Positions 22,182 through 31,688 of a stretch of 61,782 bases of DNA are shown in pieces. Position 1 is the first letter of the stretch. Every line of letters starts with the position of its first letter. This DNA is from Negaprion brevirostris (taxonomy: Eukaryota): contig JARDVH010000163.1 of the NCBI GenBank assembly GCA_030324005.1, positions 25,688,998 to 25,750,779 of the forward strand, written 5' to 3'. The translations under genes were made by a program, and so were the position numbers. The notes beneath the pieces are model-generated. The model did no database searches and was not told the origin of the DNA. It saw nothing but the letters and a program-made list of their open reading frames with translations.

Positions 22182-22683
22182 TGTTGGATCCATTCATTCG
22201 TTTGAACAGTCAAGGGGACAGCACTTAGTACGAGCTTAAAAATAGTTTTCTTTTGTTGAACAGAACTTAAAAGATTAACATGACAGAAGAAAAAGTGAAT
22301 TTGGAGACTGGCTTCTCAGCCAGATTCAGTACTGAACTTGAACACACTGAACTGGATCTTGAAACAACTGAACACATATTCTGAAATCAAAACATATTCC
22401 AACACTTATTTCACCACTGGAAGTGTTTTCAACAGGCTGTCTCTGTCTTAGTAAAACAATCCTTGCAGCTGCTGTTATACTGTTGTTTGCCTGCATTGTG
22501 TACGCTTCAGGAATGCAGTCAATTTCTAGCTAACCTCTAGCCTTCACATTCTACATGTAAGTTAGTCAAGTTAGTAGTCACTTGTTAAGCTTAGCAGAGT
22601 TAGTTGCATAGGCAGAAATATCTTAAAATGAAGTATTTGCATAGACTGAAGCAAACAGAGCTAAGCATGCACAGGACCTCTTA
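22182..22683 (-). repeat. ERV 3' LTR
   Basis: Direct repeat of 31217-31688. Starts TGTTGG on + and ends ...ggacctctta (terminal CA mutated to TA). Confidence 0.9.
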
Positions 22684-22718: not shown

Positions 22719-24870
22719 TCAGGTGAGAAATGGTTTGTTTCCCTTTCCCTTTGCAGTCATAATCATCATCACTAAGGAATTACCATTCTGTATTGTCATT
22801 AAAAGGTTACACATGCATTTAAGAAGTAAGAGTATGCAGTATATCATTACAGTAATAACAAAGAATAGCACCAATCCTTGCATCATGGAGCTCCCAATTG
22901 AGCCTAGCCATCCAGTTGCCAGCTCCACAAAGTGGAGGATGGGTACTGTTTAAGTTTCTCAGCTTCCTTTTTAATGTATCTAGCCAAATTAGTAATATTT
23001 TTCAAACTGTCGGGAATATATGTGCAGCACTCAGTCCGAGTTAAGGCACATGTGCCTCCTTGTTCAGCCAGGATGTAGTCAAGTGCCATCCTATTCTGCA
23101 TGGTTATGATATGAATGGCTACCATTTCAACTAAGGTTTCAACAGTGCCATTGGCCACCTTTTCCAGGATGGATGCCATGATGATGGACTCTCTTGCCAG
23201 TTTTGCAGTTCCATACCACTGGAGTAGCATAGTGAAGAATCACTCCATTTCTGTAATTGCTCGCCTTATTCTTTGGCAATGAGGTGGCGTGGGCAGGGAG
23301 GTTGTGTGGTGAATATAAAGTATGATATACCCCAGATAACAAGATCCTGTCCAGGATTAGGATAGCCAGGATAGGCCTTGTAGCTGCAAATAAAGTCGGT
23401 ACCATTACAGGCTATAAATTTCCTGAGTTCCCTGGTGAACATCAAATCATTCTCAGATCGCCAAGGGCCCCCACTGGTTTTGTTGAGGATGGATGACAAG
23501 TTCCACATTTCCACTAACTGGAGACCAGGGCTGACCATGGACAGATTAGGGATATCTCTGCAATTGCTATACCTCATCACTTGTTCTCTGATTTGGTTCC
23601 TAACTAGATAGACCAACTCTTGTGGCCTCCCTATCCCAGAGGTATTAGTGAGGACTACGGATGGTGTTTCACAGGTTGTCTTGTAATTGGGCTGATACCA
23701 TCTGACAAATGAGTTCAAGAAGTAGCCTGCCCACTCCCAGTCTTTTCTCCCTGCTCTTCTGCCTGAGGTCGCTACAGTTTACCTATTGGTCCTGTTACTT
23801 CTAATTAGCCATTCCGCTGTTTCAGACTCATTAAAGTGAACAGGTCTCAATGGAATACTGCCCTTGGAATGTAAAGGTATATGTACGCATACCCAATAAC
23901 TGGAGACATCAGCTTTTTTGGCATAGGCCATGTACACAAAGGTTTACCGGTAATTCTTTGGTCACTTGTTTTGGTTCCTCAGGTGCAAGGGACTGGCAGG
24001 CTGGGAATTGTTAAATGCTTGACATACAAAAGGACAACATAATACTGATTTGATTTGATTTATTATTATCACATGTTTTAACATACAGTGAAATGTATTC
24101 TTTCTTGCACATTATACAGACAAGACATACCATTCATAGAGAAGGAAATGAGAGAGAAAGAGCAAAATGTAATGTAACAGCTAGGGTGTAGAGAAAAATC
24201 AACTTAATGCAAGGTAAGTCCACTCAAAAGTCCGACAGTAGCAGGGAAGAAGCTGTTCTACAGTCGGTTGGTACGTGACCTCAGACTTTTGTATATTTTT
24301 CCCGAAGGAAGAAGGTGGAAGAGAGAATGTCCAGGTTGCGTGGGATCCTTAATTATGCTGGCTGCTTTGCCGAGACAGTGGGAAGTGTAGACAGAATCAG
24401 TGGATGGGAGATTGGTTTGCGTGATGAATTGGGCTACATTCACAACCTTTTGTAATTCCTTGCGATCTTGGGCAGAACAGGAGCCCAAGTTGTGATACAA
24501 CCAGAAAGAATGCTTTCTATGGTGCATCTGTAAATGTTGGCGAGAGTCACAGCTGACATGCCAAATTTCCTTAGTCCTCTGAGAAAGTAGAGGCATTAGT
24601 GGGCTTTCTTAACTATAGTGTCGGCATGGGGGGAACCGGACAGGTGTTTGTGATCTGGACACCTAAAAACCTGAAGCTCTCGACCCTTTCTATTTTGTCT
24701 CCATTGATGTAGACAGGGGCATGTTCTCTTTTATGCTTCCTGAAGTTGATGACAATCTCCTTCGTTTTGTTGACATTGAGAGAGAGATTATTGTTGCCAC
24801 ACTAATTTACCAGATCCTCTATCTCATTCCTGTACACTGTTTAAACTAATAAAATGTGGCTATATGTGCA
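22719..24870 (-). pseudogene. env: Retroviral env, gamma-type (frameshifted; 5' part interrupted by Rex1)
   Basis: SU motif YWVC (degenerate CWVC) near 23890; furin site RIRR at 23261-23272; ISD plus CX6CC MQNRMALDYILAEQGGTCALTRTECCTYIPD; hydrophobic membrane anchor GLVLFFVITVMIYCILLLL. Start codon uncertain. Confidence 0.9.
24046..24835 (-). mobile_element. Rex1/Babar non-LTR retrotransposon 3' fragment inserted in env
   Basis: DRKELQKVVNVAQFIT...IIKDPTQPGHSLFHLLPSGKIYKSLRSRTNRL and a short (TGATT)n tail at 24046-24060. Confidence 0.85.
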
Positions 24871-25261
24871 AGAAGTATAAAAGATAAATGTCCTTAGGTG
24901 CTCTGTTGATCTGCGATGAGTGCATCCAGGTGTTCTTTCCCTGGACCTTGAGGCTGCTTGGGGTAATAGTAGCACTTATGAACGTCTTTCCCACTTGGTT
25001 CCCAGAGGTTCTTTGTGTATCTTCCTCACGTACGCTGAGGCTCCTAAGACAATATCATGCTCTCCTTGTTGCTGACACCTAATGGGAAACAGAACAGATA
25101 ACATTTGTCTGGTTTTTACAATACTCTAACCAAGTGTCGCTCATCAAGTGGAAGTCAGCTTTTCAGAAATCAGTGGTTCTAGGCAACAACATTGGTCTTC
25201 CTGTTATTACTTTAAATGGACTCCAATCCATGGTCATCTTTGGGGTTGCTCTAATACTACA

Positions 25262-25545
25262 CAGGGTTTCCTCCGGATGCTCCAGCTTCCTCCCACAGTC
25301 CAAAGCTTTGCAGGTTAGGTCGTTTGGCCATGCTAAAAAATTGCCTCTTAGTGTCCTGAGATGCGTAGGTTAGAGNNNNNNNNNNNNNNNNNNNNNNNNN
25401 NNNNNNNNNNNNNNNNNNNNNNNNNNNNNNNNNNNNNNNNNNNNNNNNNNNNNNNNNNNNNNNNNNNNNNNNNNNGTCGTGGCTCAGTTCCACACTCCCG
25501 CCCTCTCCCCATAACCCTTAATCCCCTCGCCTGTCAAAAACCTAT
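25262..25545 (+). mobile_element. Partial HE1-like SINE plus CR1-tail fragment inserted in integrase (contains an N-gap)
   Basis: GGGTTTCCTCCGG...CCCACAGTCCAAAG SINE core. The integrase sequence stops and resumes on either side. Confidence 0.7.
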
Positions 25546-27596
25546 CTACCCAGTGATGTTTAACAGTCTACAGACCTCCTTGTAGATGGCATCTGTGAAA
25601 CGGGTTCCGTGATCGGCGTCAGTACGGTTCAGGACTTCCCATCTGGGAATGTAGTCCTTATACATAACCTTGGCTTTATGTTTGCCAATGGATTGCCTTG
25701 CTGGGGCAGCCTCCAGCCATCTGGAGAATCTGTCCACAATGACAAAAACATGGAGGGAAAGATATATAGTTGACCTATAAATCCTGGAATGGTCCTGCTG
25801 GTGCAGGGACATTACCGTGATGGGTCCTGGATTGTTTTTCTACCAGACCACACAACAGTCTGTTACCAGCTGGGTGCATTTCTTGAATCCTTGCTCCTAC
25901 CAGCTTTTCTGAAACCGTGCCGTTTTCTGCTGCAGGGACAGGTGTCCCCATGAGTGCATCTGCAGTGCCAGAAAGGGCATCAGTGCCTGGAGTATGACTG
26001 GTTTCTTAATGTCTCTTTGCCTCCATATATCATCTTTCCATAGCTTTATTCCTGCCTCGATCCATGTCCATTTTTTCTTCCCATGTGCATTCATTTTCAC
26101 CTTCTTCAAATCTTGTGTCAGACTAAGCGCTCCCAGTCTGCACATCTGAGTTGATTCTTCCAACCAGGGTAGATTGTGAGGCAGCCTCTTTGGCTGCCTG
26201 GTCATTTCCCTTTGCCATCTCAGTATTTTCCTTCATATGGACTTTGCACTTCAAAATAGACATCCTCTGGTGCAACTATATGGCTTCTAGTAAGTCTCGG
26301 ACATCTCTCCCATTATGGATGGGTCTACCTGCAGCCATGAAGAAACCCCTTCTTTGCCATAGCTGACCAAAGTCGCGGGGGACTCCGAAAGCGTACCATG
26401 AGTCCATATAAGTATTAGCTATTTATCCTTCTGCTAACCGGCAGGCTTCTGCCAAGGTTTGCAGTTTGGCCTGTTGACCTGACATTCCTGGGGGTAGACA
26501 GCCCTTTTCCATAACTTCATGTATGGTTGTAACTGCTCATCCTGCTTTTCTGACACCATTGTCAACATAGGAGGAGTCATCGGTGAAAAGAATGAGATCT
26601 GGGTTGGGTGGGGGGTCTTCCACTGCTAAGGCAACTTCTTCTGTTTCTTTTAGCAGTTCCACACATACTCTTCCTCCTCAGGAAAAGGGAGCATAGTTGC
26701 AGGGTTAACTGGACTAACCCGGACGATTTAGAAATTGTGGGCCTTCAGAACCACTATCCAACTGGTCCATTGGGCTATCGTGATCTGCGATACTCTGTTC
26801 ATTGACAACCAAACATGGACTGTGTGGGGATACTTGACAGTTAGCTTCTGATCCAGAACACCAGGTGTGAGGGCGATTATGGCTCCAAAGATGGCATCCA
26901 TGGCCCTCGGGCAACTTCCTCATCCGAGGGCTACTGTATCCAATTTTGCCGCATAGTAGCTAATAGGCCTTTGTTGGTACCATGTTCCTGTATCAGTATA
27001 GCTGTCATAGATTGTTCCTTTTCATGGACAAACAAGGTGAAGGGCTTCCATTGTTGGGGATTCCTAGTGCTGGTGTAGGGCACAAAGCTGCTGGTGTAGG
27101 GCACAAAGCGTCTTTAACATCCCTGAAAGCCTCTGTTCTTTCATGAAGGGAATAGCCTCCTTTAATGTCCATTTTCCCTTTAAAAGGTCATTCAGTGGTT
27201 GGGTAAACTGTGTGTAAAGTCCACCCAACTTCTGTTAAAGTTGCACAGACCCAAAAAGGATCTCAGTTCTTTGATCATAGTAGGCTGTTTAGTGTGGCCC
27301 TATCCTGGGTAAGTTCTCTCTTTCTCTCTGAAATTTTCTGTCCCAGTTACTCAACCCTTTTTTGGATTCTCTGTGCTTTGTTGATGCTAGCCTTCAGGTG
27401 AAGATGATCCAGCAGGGTGTGTTAGTCCTACGTGTGCTGTTCTTCCACGTTGGAGGCTAACAGGCTATCATCCACACATTGGATAACCTTGGAGGACAAT
27501 GTGGGTAGTTCTCGCAAATGGCTTTGTAAGGCCATATGAAGTACCATAGGGCTATTGTGAAACCCCTGAGGTAGCTGGGTCCAGGTATATTGGACC

Positions 27597-27665
27597 GGCT
27601 AGCATGGGAGCGGAGCAGGCTCGAAGGGCAAAATTGCCTCCTCCTGCTCCTATCTTCTATGTTGT
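27597..27665 (+). mobile_element. Very short 5'-truncated CR1 3'-tail insertion in RT
   Basis: ggagcaggctcgaagggc...cctgctcctatcttctatgtt, flanked by tattggacc / tactggacc (9-bp TSD, 1 mismatch). Confidence 0.75.
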
Positions 27666-27690
27666 TACTGGACCATAAAGGCAAACAATG

Positions 27691-27930
27691 AACAAAGAAG
27701 ATTACAGCACAGGAACAGGCCCATCGGTCCTTGAAGCCTACAGCGACCATGCAGCCTGACTGAACTAAAATCCCCTACCCTCCCGAGGACCATATGCCTC
27801 TATTCCTATCCTATTCATAGATTTGTCAAGATGCCCCTTATAAGTCATTATTTTATTTGCTTCCATATCTTCCCCGCTTGCGAGTTCCAGGCACCCACCA
27901 CCCTCTGTGTAAAAAACTTGCCTCGTACAT
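27691..27930 (-). mobile_element. CR1 3' end insertion in RT
   Basis: Closely similar to 3130-3370 and 54532-54735. It splits the RT motif QP(W)FAF. Confidence 0.85.
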
Positions 27931-29102
27931 CTATGGTTGGACCTCAGGTGATAGTGGCACCAAAATCCAGTGGCCATGTTGGTGACTGAGAAGTACTTAT
28001 GTTCCAGGGTTAAGGTGTTAAAAATGGTGGAGGCGCCTGTGATAAGATGGGCCTTTTGATCAATCCACTGATTGGCCTTTCTGTAGTCTATGGTCAAATG
28101 CCAAGTTCCATTTGATTTATTTACTGATCATACAGGGCTTTTAGATGAGCTGTGTGCCTTGACTAGCATGCCTTGTTTCTCCAGTTGTTGAATAACTGGC
28201 AGGGTGCCGGGCTGATGGGGTACTGCCTGGTACAGGGTTGTGGTGTTCCAGTGAATGAGGCTGGTTCCATCTGGAGTAAGCCGCAATTATTCTTACCTTG
28301 GGCCTATATTGGGAGGTACATGCAGTCTTCCTTTTTCAAAGGATTGATAGACCACGTCACCTTACCCTTTTTAAAACCCAAAAAGGAGTTTAGCTGAACC
28401 AGGATGTCCATTCCAAGTAAGGCTTGTTGTACCAGTTCCATCCAAACTCGGATAGTCACTTCGTGAGGACCAAGGTGAATTCTAGTGGGTTTAGTCTGCT
28501 GGAGTTTTATATTACCTCCACTTGTCACTTGTGCTATTATCAGTTGGTTGTTCATGCAGAAATATCTTTTGTATTTCAGTGTTAGACAGTTTAACTCTAC
28601 TCCGCTGTCCAGGAGACAGTCTATGTCTTGATTGCCCACCCATATCATTATGTATATCACATCTCCCCTCTGTTCCACTAGCACCAGAAGCGGGGCTGTG
28701 AAGACAAGGGCGGGCTCTGCTAATTTTTTGCTGCATCTAGCAACACACCTTGTTGCTCTGTGGTGAGCTGCTTAAACTTCTTCAAACATTCTTCATCTTC
28801 AAACTGATGCTGAGACTGTTGGTATCCCTGACATCCGTTATCTTACTGCTTGGCTTGGCATGTTTTTGCCCTGTGACCTTTTCCGCCTGGTAGGAGAGCC
28901 TGGTAGAATCCTTGGGTTTCCCTCTGTTTGCAGGATGCAGATTTTGGCTCCTGTATCCTGATCTATTTGATTACACCGCTCCAATACTGTTGCGAATGTT
29001 GTTCCGACTTTGTCCCAGTTTGGCGAATGTAACTTTACTATCTTTGCCAATTCTGGCTTTAGGCCAGTGACAAATGCAGCTTTCACGGGTCCAAAAGTAT
29101 TG

Positions 29103-30026
29103 ATATGGAGACGCCGGCACTGGACTGGGGTAAGCACAGTAAAAAGTCTCACAACACCAGGTTAAAGTCTAACAGGTTTATTTGGTAGCACAAGCTTTCG
29201 AAGTGTCACTGCTTCAGGTGAGTTATGAGTTGTGTTCACAAACAGGACACATATAGACACAAACTCAATTTACGAGATAATGGTTGGAATGCGAGTCTTT
29301 GCAGGTAATCAAGTCTTAAAGGTACAGACAATGCAAGTGGAGAGGGGGTTAAGCACAGGTTAAAGAGGTGCGCATTGTCTCCAGTCAGGACAGTTAGTGA
29401 GATTTTGCAAGCCCAGGCAAGTTGTGGGGGTTCCAAGTAGTGTGACATGAACCCAAGAGGGCATCTCCATGTGTGCAGAACTTGGCTATCAGTTTCTGCT
29501 CAGCGATTCTGCATTGTCGTGTGTCATGAAGGCCGCCTTGGAGAATGCTTACCGGAAGATCAGAGGCCGAATGCCTGTGACTGCTGAAGTGTTCCCCAAT
29601 AGGAGGAGAACACTCCTGCCTGGTGATTGCCGAGCAGTGTTCATTCATCCGTTTTCGTAGCGTCTGCATGGTCTCGCCAATGTACCATGCCTCAGGACAT
29701 CCTTTCCTGCAGTGTATCAAGTAGACAATGTTGGCCAGTTCTGTGATTTATCCTAAGTTGCACTAACTGTCCTGGCTGGAGACAATACACCTGTGCTTTA
29801 ACCTGTTCTTAACCCTCTCTCTACTCAGATTGTCTGTACTTTTAAGACTTGATTACCTGTAAAGACTTGCATTCCAACCATTATCTTGTAAATTGTGATT
29901 GTGTCTATATGTGCCCTGTTTGTGAACACAACTCATCACTCACCTGGAGAAGGAATGACACTCCGAAAGCTTGTGCTACCAAATAAATATGTTGGACTTT
30001 ATCCTGCTGTTGTGAGACTTCTTATT
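29103..30026 (-). mobile_element. Penelope-like element (GIY-YIG fragment with inverted pseudo-LTRs) inserted in gag
   Basis: ORF 29394..29720 reads CRKGCPEAWYIGETMQTLRKRMNEH (GIY-YIG). 29138-29400 is the reverse complement of about 29761-30026. TSD of 14 bp, gtccaaaagtattg / gtccaaaggtattg. Confidence 0.9.
29941..29975 (+). ncRNA. Degenerate minimal hammerhead ribozyme in Penelope pLTR
   Basis: cac-CTGGAGA-aGGAatgacacTCC-GAAAGCTT-gtg: CUGANGA core with one mismatch, GAAA box, and palindromic stem III AAGCTT. Confidence 0.6.
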
Positions 30027-31193
30027 GTCCAAAGGTATTGCCATCCATTTCTTCGGCACCGGCATTGTCTATTCCTGAATATTCCGTCCACACAGCCCTA
30101 AACCGTTCATCATACTCCCATACCTCTTCTGTACCTCTCTGCTGATAGGCTGCTATTTTTCCCCAATCTGTTTTGGCGGCACTGAATACATGTAGCCACC
30201 TGTAGCTTTCACTAATGGTTTTACCACCTGCCTTGGCAGCCTCAGACTTGATCTTGACCCGTTTTCTGTTTAATGGTGCGAGTCTTATAACAGAAGTCCC
30301 TTCTGCAATGTTGCTGCACTCGCTAGAGTTGCTAGAGGACCCTGAGTCTGCTTCTAAACCAGCCTCACGCCCTTGCCTGTCTCGCTGTTCTTTTTCTATT
30401 TGTCGCATACTAGGGTAACCTGACCAGGACCCAATACATACTCCTTTAAATGATGTTTGTCCTTTATAAGATGGTTCTTTATAATCTCAGTTCTTAGCTT
30501 TAAAAGTTGTATTTTCAGTCTTAAGTCCCTTATTTTCCACTTCTAACTTTCTAACTTTGTATACTGCTTTTAGTTGGTTCTTTGCATTAGTCAGATCGTG
30601 GTCATGTTGGGAGTTCTTTAACATTTCATTCCTTTGTTGGATCTGGCCCAGGACAGCTAAGGACAAACTTATGAATTCCTTATCCTTCATATGGCTCGTT
30701 TTTCCCAGATCCTCTTTATCTCATTCAAGGATCACTGTCCCTTGGAGATGCCGTACTTCTGTTCAATCTCAGTACAGGTTTTGGGCAAGTCAAATTGATG
30801 TTCGATATGTTCTCTTAGTTGTTGCAGAACTTTATCCTCAAAAACATTGGATGGCGCCTGGCCGCCTCTTACTGTGATCGGTAACTGATTCTGTAGAGGA
30901 GTTTTGGTCTGACTTTTCGTTTCTGTCATGGTGATGGTCGTTATGGGGTTAATGAGTCTTGAGCTGTAGGCAATCCTAGCTGGGTCGGAGTCTTATCACA
31001 GACATCGCCAAAACGAGATATCTCTAAGTGGGGCCTTGCGATATAGGACAGAACATCAGTTTGTCAAGGATTGCGTAAAGGGGAGGACGAGATTTAGATA
31101 ATCGACCAAGGACTTTTAATTAAGAGGAGTTCTTACCTCCAGGGTCACGACATAAGTTCGATGTCCTGAATTCAGTCCAATAGGCCTTCAGCA

Positions 31194-31211
31194 TTCCTGT
31201 TCGTGATGCCA
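31194..31211 (-). promoter_or_regulatory. Primer-binding site, tRNA-Ser(CGA)
   Basis: Minus-strand TGGCATCACGAACAGGAA, 5 nt from the 5' LTR. The + strand TTCCTGTTCGTGATGCCA matches the 3' end of a vertebrate tRNA-Ser(CGA), ATCCTGTTCGTGACGCCA (recalled, not searched), at 16/18. Confidence 0.8.
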
Positions 31212-31216
31212 GAAGC

Positions 31217-31688
31217 TGTTGGGCCCACTCATTCGTTTAAACACTTGGTATGAGTTTAAAAATGGTTTTCTTTTATTGAACAGAACTTGAAAGATTAACA
31301 TGACAGAAGAAAACGTGAACTTGGAGACTGGCTTCTCAGTAGGACTCTACTGAACTTGAACACACTGAACTGGAGCATGAAACACACACTCTGAAACTAA
31401 AACATATTTCAATCCTTATCTCGCCACTGGAAGTGTTTTCCGCAGGCTGTCTCTGTCTTAGAAAAAGAATCCTCGCAGCTGCTGTTATGCTGTTATTTGC
31501 CTGCATTGTGTACTTTTCAGGAATGCAGTCAATTTCTAGCTAACCGTTAACCTTCAGATTCTACATGTGGTCAAGTTAGCAGTCAATTGGTAAGCTTAGC
31601 AGAGTTAGTTGCATAGGCTGAAATACCTTAAAATGAAGTCCTTGCGTAGACTGAAGCAAACAGGGCTAAGCACACATAGGATCTCTCA
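31217..31688 (-). repeat. ERV 5' LTR
   Basis: TG...CA termini and direct repeat of 22182-22683. Minus-strand AATAAA at 31272-31277. Confidence 0.9.

Follow-up and report, generated by a model that had tools for sequence, protein, structure and literature searches.

The window analysed here is a stretch of 61,782 nucleotides of Negaprion brevirostris (assembly GCA_030324005.1, contig JARDVH010000163.1, positions 25,688,998 to 25,750,779 of the forward strand), and its minus strand was found to contain a 9.5 kb provirus whose gag, pro, pol and env are all interrupted by stops, indels and inserted repeats. The site described is the gag-pro junction of this decayed provirus, which belongs to a distinct shark/teleost clade next to the class I retroviruses; one member nested in that clade was found to have an in-frame leaky stop. 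The junction contains a slippery heptamer followed directly by the gag stop, with the protease in the -1 frame, and is very probably, as judged from sequence, a programmed -1 frameshift signal with which the ancestral virus would have made Gag-Pro-Pol. The features at the junction are the following, in positions of the window.

28720..30929, minus strand: gag, interrupted by stops and indels and, at about 29230-29750, by an insertion; ends in LLDAAKN and the stop
28723..28729, minus strand: slippery heptamer A AAA AAT
28720..28722, minus strand: gag stop TAG, directly 3' of the heptamer
28705..28715, minus strand: 5' arm of the likely stimulatory long-range helix, after a 7-nt spacer
28634..28644, minus strand: 3' arm of the long-range helix
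28666..28710, minus strand: 45-nt hairpin of an earlier note on this DNA; folds alone, without covariation, and overlaps the 5' arm of the longer helix
28304..28771, minus strand: protease frame, -1 to gag, with DSG codons at 28601-28609

The minus strand reads GAT GCA GCA AAA AAT TAG CAG AGC CC at the junction. The frame closed by TAG carries the decayed tail of a Gag zinc knuckle (..GKGHRAKTC..LLDAAKN), and the -1 frame, open from 28771 to 28304, reads KKLAEPALV..LLDSG and gave a weak match to retroviral protease families (RVP, E=0.002), one that falls short of the curated cut-off. The X XXY YYZ heptamer that the earlier note had placed at 28723-28729, right before the gag stop, was confirmed in sequence, and its assignment of the protease to the -1 frame is borne out by the open frame, the LLDSG motif and the weak RVP match. 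As a measure of chance, a heptamer followed by a stop occurs 31 times in the window when its two strands (123,564 positions) are counted. A contig of run X1, which may be the source of the assembly, was identical across 28560-28900, and contigs of three other studies (X2, X6 and X8) were found to cross the junction with 4-5 substitutions and no gap, with no change listed in the heptamer or the stop. Since contigs from four studies span the site without a gap or a listed change in it, it is not an assembly error. The gag of the window also contains an upstream indel, missed in the earlier note, so that the gag frame of this copy can be fixed only by comparing copies.

In the 2.7 Gb genome, 21 matches were obtained by DNA search and 28 by protein search, and 25 loci reaching the junction were examined; L016 and L017 (not spanning), L018 and L020 (protease only) and duplicates were left out, and loci fetched later in the analysis were not added to the 25. 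The proteases of the examined loci were 30-71% identical to that of the window. Read by eye, 16 of the 25 junctions keep the heptamer position, the gag stop and the -1 protease, and were found to contain A AAA AAC (eight), A AAA AAT (three), G GGA AAC (one, L036) or a site one letter off (four), the X XXY YYZ heptamer being perfect in 12 of the 16. One shark subfamily contained one codon between the heptamer and the stop. Automatic frame scoring of the 25 loci gave -1 in 17, +1 in five and 0 in three. Other copies with gag and pro in one frame, named in the earlier note as the sign of a post-integration indel, were looked for, and an in-frame stop before an open protease was found at none of the 25 shark junctions; the heptamer and the -1 offset were instead shared across diverged lineages. 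The -1 offset with its slippery heptamer is a real, family-wide junction. No conserved Met was found between the site and the protease active site in eight far-subfamily rows, over the stretch aligning to the Met of the near subfamily.

A search with the open reverse transcriptase (RT) stretch returned Pro-Pol proteins 57-64% identical, in clusters with members named from carp, Astyanax and piranhas, and a second search added relatives from Coilia, Alosa, cod and zebrafish together with a cluster of 3,937 members. The Pro and Pol of these relatives form a single open reading frame (ORF) of about 1,166 amino acids. Three Gag proteins of the 3,937-member cluster were found to end in QQDQEKN, and the Pro ORFs of that family start with STTRPGKKL; all 12 codon solutions that join the two peptides need a -1 shift over A AAA AAY followed by a stop, and no +1 solution was found for them. 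The zebrafish RefSeq model XP_073791153 runs through the site as QEQEKKLIV, the -1-frame peptide recurs, as CSKKLAEP, in a Heterodontus model, and the best protein match of the window protease was a Heterodontus gene model. The Pro-Pol of Astyanax contains FFKLI at the same distance from DTG, which is compatible, from the protein only, with U UUA AAC UAA.

The 3,937-member cluster (P0029) contains many full-length Gag and Pro-Pol ORFs, which suggests a recent amplification in a fish close to the zebrafish relatives. The Heterodontus francisci model P0001, named 'zinc finger protein 850-like', was found to splice pieces of an endogenous retrovirus (ERV) of the window clade between C2H2 arrays and is probably an annotation artefact. 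Scans for DNA of clade members gave only L067, described below, and one unrelated retrotransposon in metagenomes; viral contigs gave no match to P0002 or P0050, and alignment A2 matched there a genome like snakehead retrovirus (SnRV) only. No match to clade members was found in prokaryote genomes, and the protein atlas returned generic RT/RNase H clusters only. The metagenome contig L068 contains, at 189-5255, an intact single-ORF retrotransposon of 1,688 aa with a chromodomain-like tail, unrelated to the window clade.

Downstream of the site, the 45-nt hairpin of the earlier note begins 12 nt after the heptamer. Taken alone it does adopt the fold given in that note (-17.3 kcal/mol, z -2.0, equalled by 7 of 200 shuffles; z -0.4 with 6 bases added on each side), but it did not covary, as 79% of its cells were paired in 12 copies and 209 of 500 shuffles were as high. 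This hairpin is probably not the stimulator, and a longer helix with a spacer of 7-9 nt fits better. Folding is better in the 95 nt that follow the site than in the flanks (mean z -0.57, n=18 copies, vs +0.23, n=70; p=0.003), and the 82-nt stem-loop of the window, closed by 28708-28715 and 28634-28641, reaches z -2.9. The two shark subfamilies share a single codon register for the long helix, with 153 of 191 cells paired against 76-93 when slid; it was picked by eye, so this slid control is biased. Pooled over both subfamilies, 80% of its cells were paired (237 of 5000 shuffles as high); in the 12 near-subfamily copies 89% were paired (109 of 500), and for two helices in eight far-subfamily copies 76% were paired with seven doubly changed pairs (3 and 9 of 500 shuffles). 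One pair of third codon positions in the long helix is C-G/U-G in 11 rows and U-A in eight. The long helix starting 7-9 nt downstream is the likely stimulator, and its predicted fold looks like a long stem and not a compact pseudoknot.

In the proposed mechanism, translation would end for most ribosomes at the UAG that adjoins A AAA AAY, with Gag as the product. The long helix, which starts 7-9 nt downstream, would make a minority pause and slip by one base into the -1 frame, the single Pro-Pol frame, which would be a lentivirus-like layout. We infer the slippage itself, and the part of the helix as its stimulator, from the comparison of these sequences.

Several observations weigh against a programmed frameshift at this junction. 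Every shark copy is decayed; six of the 25 junctions contain differing small length changes at or near the A-run that give other offsets, three lack the site and cannot be called, and the gag frame of L036, the G GGA AAC copy, is weakly assigned. The teleost junctions of -1 type are known from proteins alone and not from junction DNA, and the teleost Gag and Pro come from sequence clusters that are not proven single loci. As to the long helix, it was chosen by eye from these same sequences, its shuffle support is modest (109/500, 3/500, 237/5000), and several copies, L036 among them, do not fold it. It was also not recovered by RNAalifold, which gave -0.2 to -4.3 kcal/mol in other registers, and a shorter 8-pair helix from RNAalifold (96% paired, 22 of 500 shuffles) competes with it and has an equally good score.

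For the placement of the clade, references were taken from public viral contigs, rows were subsampled, and breaks in the shark rows were represented by X. The SnRV-like reference L069 (10,688 nt) contains the junction UAGGGC as does SnRV, the SSSV-like reference L085 (SSSV, salmon swim bladder sarcoma virus) contains UGAAGA, and L070 was identical to walleye epidermal hyperplasia virus 1 (WEHV1). The SSSV junction was taken from a review and from contig L085, and the remaining viral reference contigs carry labels that we assume from their motifs. The Logan protein P0160 hardly differs from the SnRV-like reference across RT-RNase H.

Against structures, the RT scored 80 bits with foamy virus and 77 with murine leukemia virus (MLV), vs 32-44 bits with lentiviral and other class II chains, and the RNase H matched MLV/XMRV only. 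In trees of the RT-to-RNase H region, the shark and teleost rows form one clade (support 100; 100/99) beside gamma- plus epsilonretroviruses (100/99), followed outside by a second shark family and then SnRV. When the careful RT-only tree was built with ten rows of class II included, these joined class I (98/97) with the window clade outside, where it was not resolved from foamy viruses; in a quick mixture tree of 40 rows, lentiviruses were likewise not resolved from class I and the window clade. Of the class I features listed in table 1 of PMC4299795, the Gag zinc finger (zf-CCHC), the GPY/F-type integrase tail (MLVIN_C) and a gamma-type Env (TLV_coat) are present. No dUTPase match was found in the four relatives scanned. 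The earlier note had called the RNase H, integrase and Env class I-like, and the MLV-type RNase H, MLVIN_C and TLV_coat agree with it, but the clade lies outside gamma/epsilon.

Other placements were considered. The window clade is not inside gamma plus epsilon, being a separate clade (100/99) next to that group (100/99), and an exclusive group of the clade with class II was rejected by the approximately unbiased test (p=0.022). It is not within the SnRV-like clade, as the SnRV-like contig branches outside, and an identity as spumavirus, ERV3 or ERV4 was set aside with the Gag zinc knuckle, MLVIN_C and the Pro frame without a conserved Met. A Bhikhari/Loki identity was considered and not kept; the rows P0191 and P0203, which we take to be Loki-like, are far away, in a tree without any named Loki reference.

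In-frame stops were found in the SnRV-like, WDSV-like (walleye dermal sarcoma virus), SSSV-like and Xen1-like contigs and in 10 of the 12 gamma-type contigs scanned, a different stop coming first in the other two. Of 20 loci fetched from the next shark family, 17 contained CAA GAY TGA, in most cases with CGG as the next codon. This second shark ERV family (loci L103-L122 of the genome, G000) is younger and far more numerous (155 matches, at most 86% identity to P0103), apparently contains two Gag zinc knuckles, and branches between SnRV and class I. The genome is rich in a family that has a Mustelus protein among its cluster members, which, like the best protease match in Heterodontus, fits a shark host.

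Inside the window clade, a single contig is of the readthrough type. L067, a 2-kb metagenome contig 79% identical to a cod-type member, contains open gag and pro in frame, and falls in a nested group together with the rows of Coilia, Alosa and the cod type (100/100); a placement of that group outside all other members was rejected under a simpler model (p=0.016). Its junction reads GAT GAT TGA CTA GAA ACC, vs AAA AAA CTA GAA GAG in the -1 frame of the shark, and CUAG is common to its in-frame UGA CUA G and to the shark junction at the homologous spot. No stable fold was found after the L067 stop (z +0.65). UGA-CUAG is a strong readthrough context, in agreement with the covered part of the review PMC13517186.

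The labelled rows need two changes of recoding, or three with class II, and two gains with a reversal, three gains, and one ancient gain with two losses are equal by count. With an in-frame stop at this position in the neighbours and in one nested member, these trees imply three or more changes of recoding mode, two of them around and inside the clade and one for class II. We give even weight to belief and doubt in the fuller reading, that a shark/teleost clade with recently active, high-copy members gained -1 frameshifting independently of class II and switched modes at one site, with CUAG used in both states and the recoding mode labile. On this account, one state would use CUAG as the final heptamer base plus the gag stop (A AAA AAC UAG), the other would use it as the context of a leaky stop (UGA CUA G), and a few changes just upstream would therefore convert one mechanism to the other.

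A single gain of frameshifting before the split of the clade, class I and class II, lost later in gamma/epsilon and in the cod/herring-type subclade, would alter the history only. The grouping of class II with class I (98/97), with the window clade just outside, agrees with such a gain, its one gain and two losses are three changes just as two gains and one reversal are, and the rejected exclusive group with class II does not exclude it. We regard it as unlikely though by no means negligible, as the SnRV-like contig and the next shark family are in frame and class II sits on long branches that moved between trees.

It is improbable that Pro-Pol was translated from a separate mRNA that was spliced or initiated internally, in the manner of foamy viruses, with the heptamer incidental. 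The near-equal RT scores (foamy 80 bits, MLV 77), the RT-only tree that left the clade unresolved with foamy viruses and an upstream Met in the Pro frame of Astyanax speak for it, whereas the Pro frame is without a conserved Met, three canonical heptamer types occupy one site directly before the stop, and the element has a Gag zinc knuckle and an RNase H that matches MLV/XMRV only. Polymerase slippage on the A-run, adding a base to some transcripts and so giving the fusion without ribosomal slippage, is very improbable. Most junctions do contain six or seven A's and the zebrafish gene model does read through the site, but RNA polymerase II slippage needs longer runs, the G GGA AAC junction and the likely U UUA AAC junction have no long A-run, and the downstream helix lies at ribosomal spacing. 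Least probable of all is a post-integration or founder indel in the A-run of an in-frame readthrough element, for although the A-run varies in length in some copies (L005, L032) and the two genes share a frame in one clade member and in every neighbour whose DNA was seen, the same offset was found in two shark subfamilies and in the intact high-copy teleost elements of the 3,937-member cluster, the heptamer swaps to another canonical type, and no two of the six junctions with changed length have the same lesion.

Among known systems, epsilonretroviruses and epsilon-like viruses (WDSV, WEHV1, SSSV and zebrafish endogenous retrovirus, ZFERV; class I, clade Mu) share with the window clade fish hosts, an MLV-like RNase H, an MLV-type integrase C-terminal domain, a TLV_coat Env, one Gag zinc knuckle and pro plus pol in one frame. 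They differ in that gag and pro are in frame behind TAG/TGA, and the window clade, with its mostly -1 junction, lies outside their group. The -1 sites of beta-, delta- and lentiviruses are alike in heptamer types, spacer range and the logic of a downstream structure, and the single-shift layout is that of lentiviruses (HIV), but their RT is distant (32-44 vs 77-80 bits) and a shared exclusive clade was rejected. In the covered part of PMC3835772, A AAA AAC is listed for MMTV and G GGA AAC for MPMV, JSRV and HERV-K. SnRV and SnRV-like class III ERVs (XtERV-S, OVEX1; clade Huo) have a similarly central position in the RT tree and fish or shark hosts, but differ in the in-frame stop and the deeper branch, and the window Env has no match to the SnRV-like contig. 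The elephant-shark CmiERV lineages I-III, which were placed with SnRV or epsilon viruses in PMC4422223 and whose sequences were not compared here, are the other shark ERVs concerned, and the part of that paper covered contains nothing on their gag-pro junction.

The literature was covered in part (PMC3835772, PMC13517186, PMC1224870, PMC12193657, PMC2717909, PMC5512871, PMC8278194, bioRxiv 2024.07.05.601823, PMC6001957, PMC12067270, PMC5009743, PMC5210030, PMC4724089, PMC4299795, PMC4422223). Within these parts no description of a -1 gag-pro site in fish or shark ERVs was found, subscription papers, Repbase and supplements (CmiERV sequences, the 2018 phylogenomic set), which may hold the clade, being outside this scope. 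Readthrough or in-frame layouts are described there for gamma, epsilon, SSSV, ZFERV, SnRV, XtERV-S, OVEX1 and frog ERVs with Pro. Minority -1 calls among decayed class I ERVs amount to 17% in PMC1224870, which names post-integration indels as an error source, and to 380 of 1,803 in another paper. The Gag-Pol strategy is held to be fixed by branch, with readthrough in gamma, epsilon and fish viruses and frameshifting in class II (PMC13517186), and was proposed as a 'global' taxonomic marker (PMC1224870); the covered texts thus agree with the earlier note that frameshifting is unexpected on the gamma/epsilon side.

The copy in the window is dead, a fossil, and no RNA data set was listed as containing this stretch. 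The remaining parts of the provirus are the following.

31242..31686, minus strand: 5' long terminal repeat (LTR), aligned core; 86% identity to the 3' LTR over 460 columns, Kimura two-parameter distance 0.12; by eye it reaches about 31217
31194..31211, minus strand: primer-binding site, in which 16 of 18 letters can pair with the 3' end (CCA included) of a tRNA-like gene; the primer is likely tRNA-Ser(CGA)
24896..28303, minus strand: pol (RT, tether, RNase H, integrase), in many pieces, starting in the protease frame
22904..23778, minus strand: env pieces, TLV_coat E=3e-5
22222..22681, minus strand: 3' LTR, aligned core, aligned to the 5' LTR

The tRNA-like gene lies in L196 of the same genome, where the anticodon CGA was read by eye; it is N-truncated and ARAGORN made no call. 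The window gag was found to match teleost Gag P0050 weakly (tblastn, E=4e-4), and pol was delimited by tblastn with P0002 and P0005 and by an rve match. The transmembrane part of env contains MQNRMALDYILA and C-X6-CC; we presume the former to be immunosuppressive-domain-like, and both motif labels are assumed by us. The best tblastx match of env was the SSSV-like contig L085, and no match was found to the SnRV-like, foamy, lenti or beta contigs tested. The insertion in gag (29230-29750, minus strand) contains the open stretch ..PEAWYIGETMQTLRKRMNEH.., which presumably resembles a GIY-YIG endonuclease fragment of a Penelope-type element, a label we assume. Host repeats are inserted in the RT part of pol (about 27690-27960), with further copies at 3129, 54529 and 61443 of the window, and between pol and env (24250-24800), where the insert looks like a long interspersed nuclear element (LINE) fragment. 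At least 40 genome matches to the LTR end, most without the leader, indicate many solo LTRs of the family of the window element.

The rule that the strategy is fixed by branch is broken by a gamma-side clade that has a canonical -1 site. If the reading of two modes at one site is true, the recoding mode would be a labile trait and not a deep marker of retroviral branches. The presence of both modes in close relatives at a homologous position offers natural material on how recoding can be changed while the Gag:Pol ratio is kept. Gene models and ERV annotation tools will misread such a junction, as in the fused zebrafish and horn-shark models.
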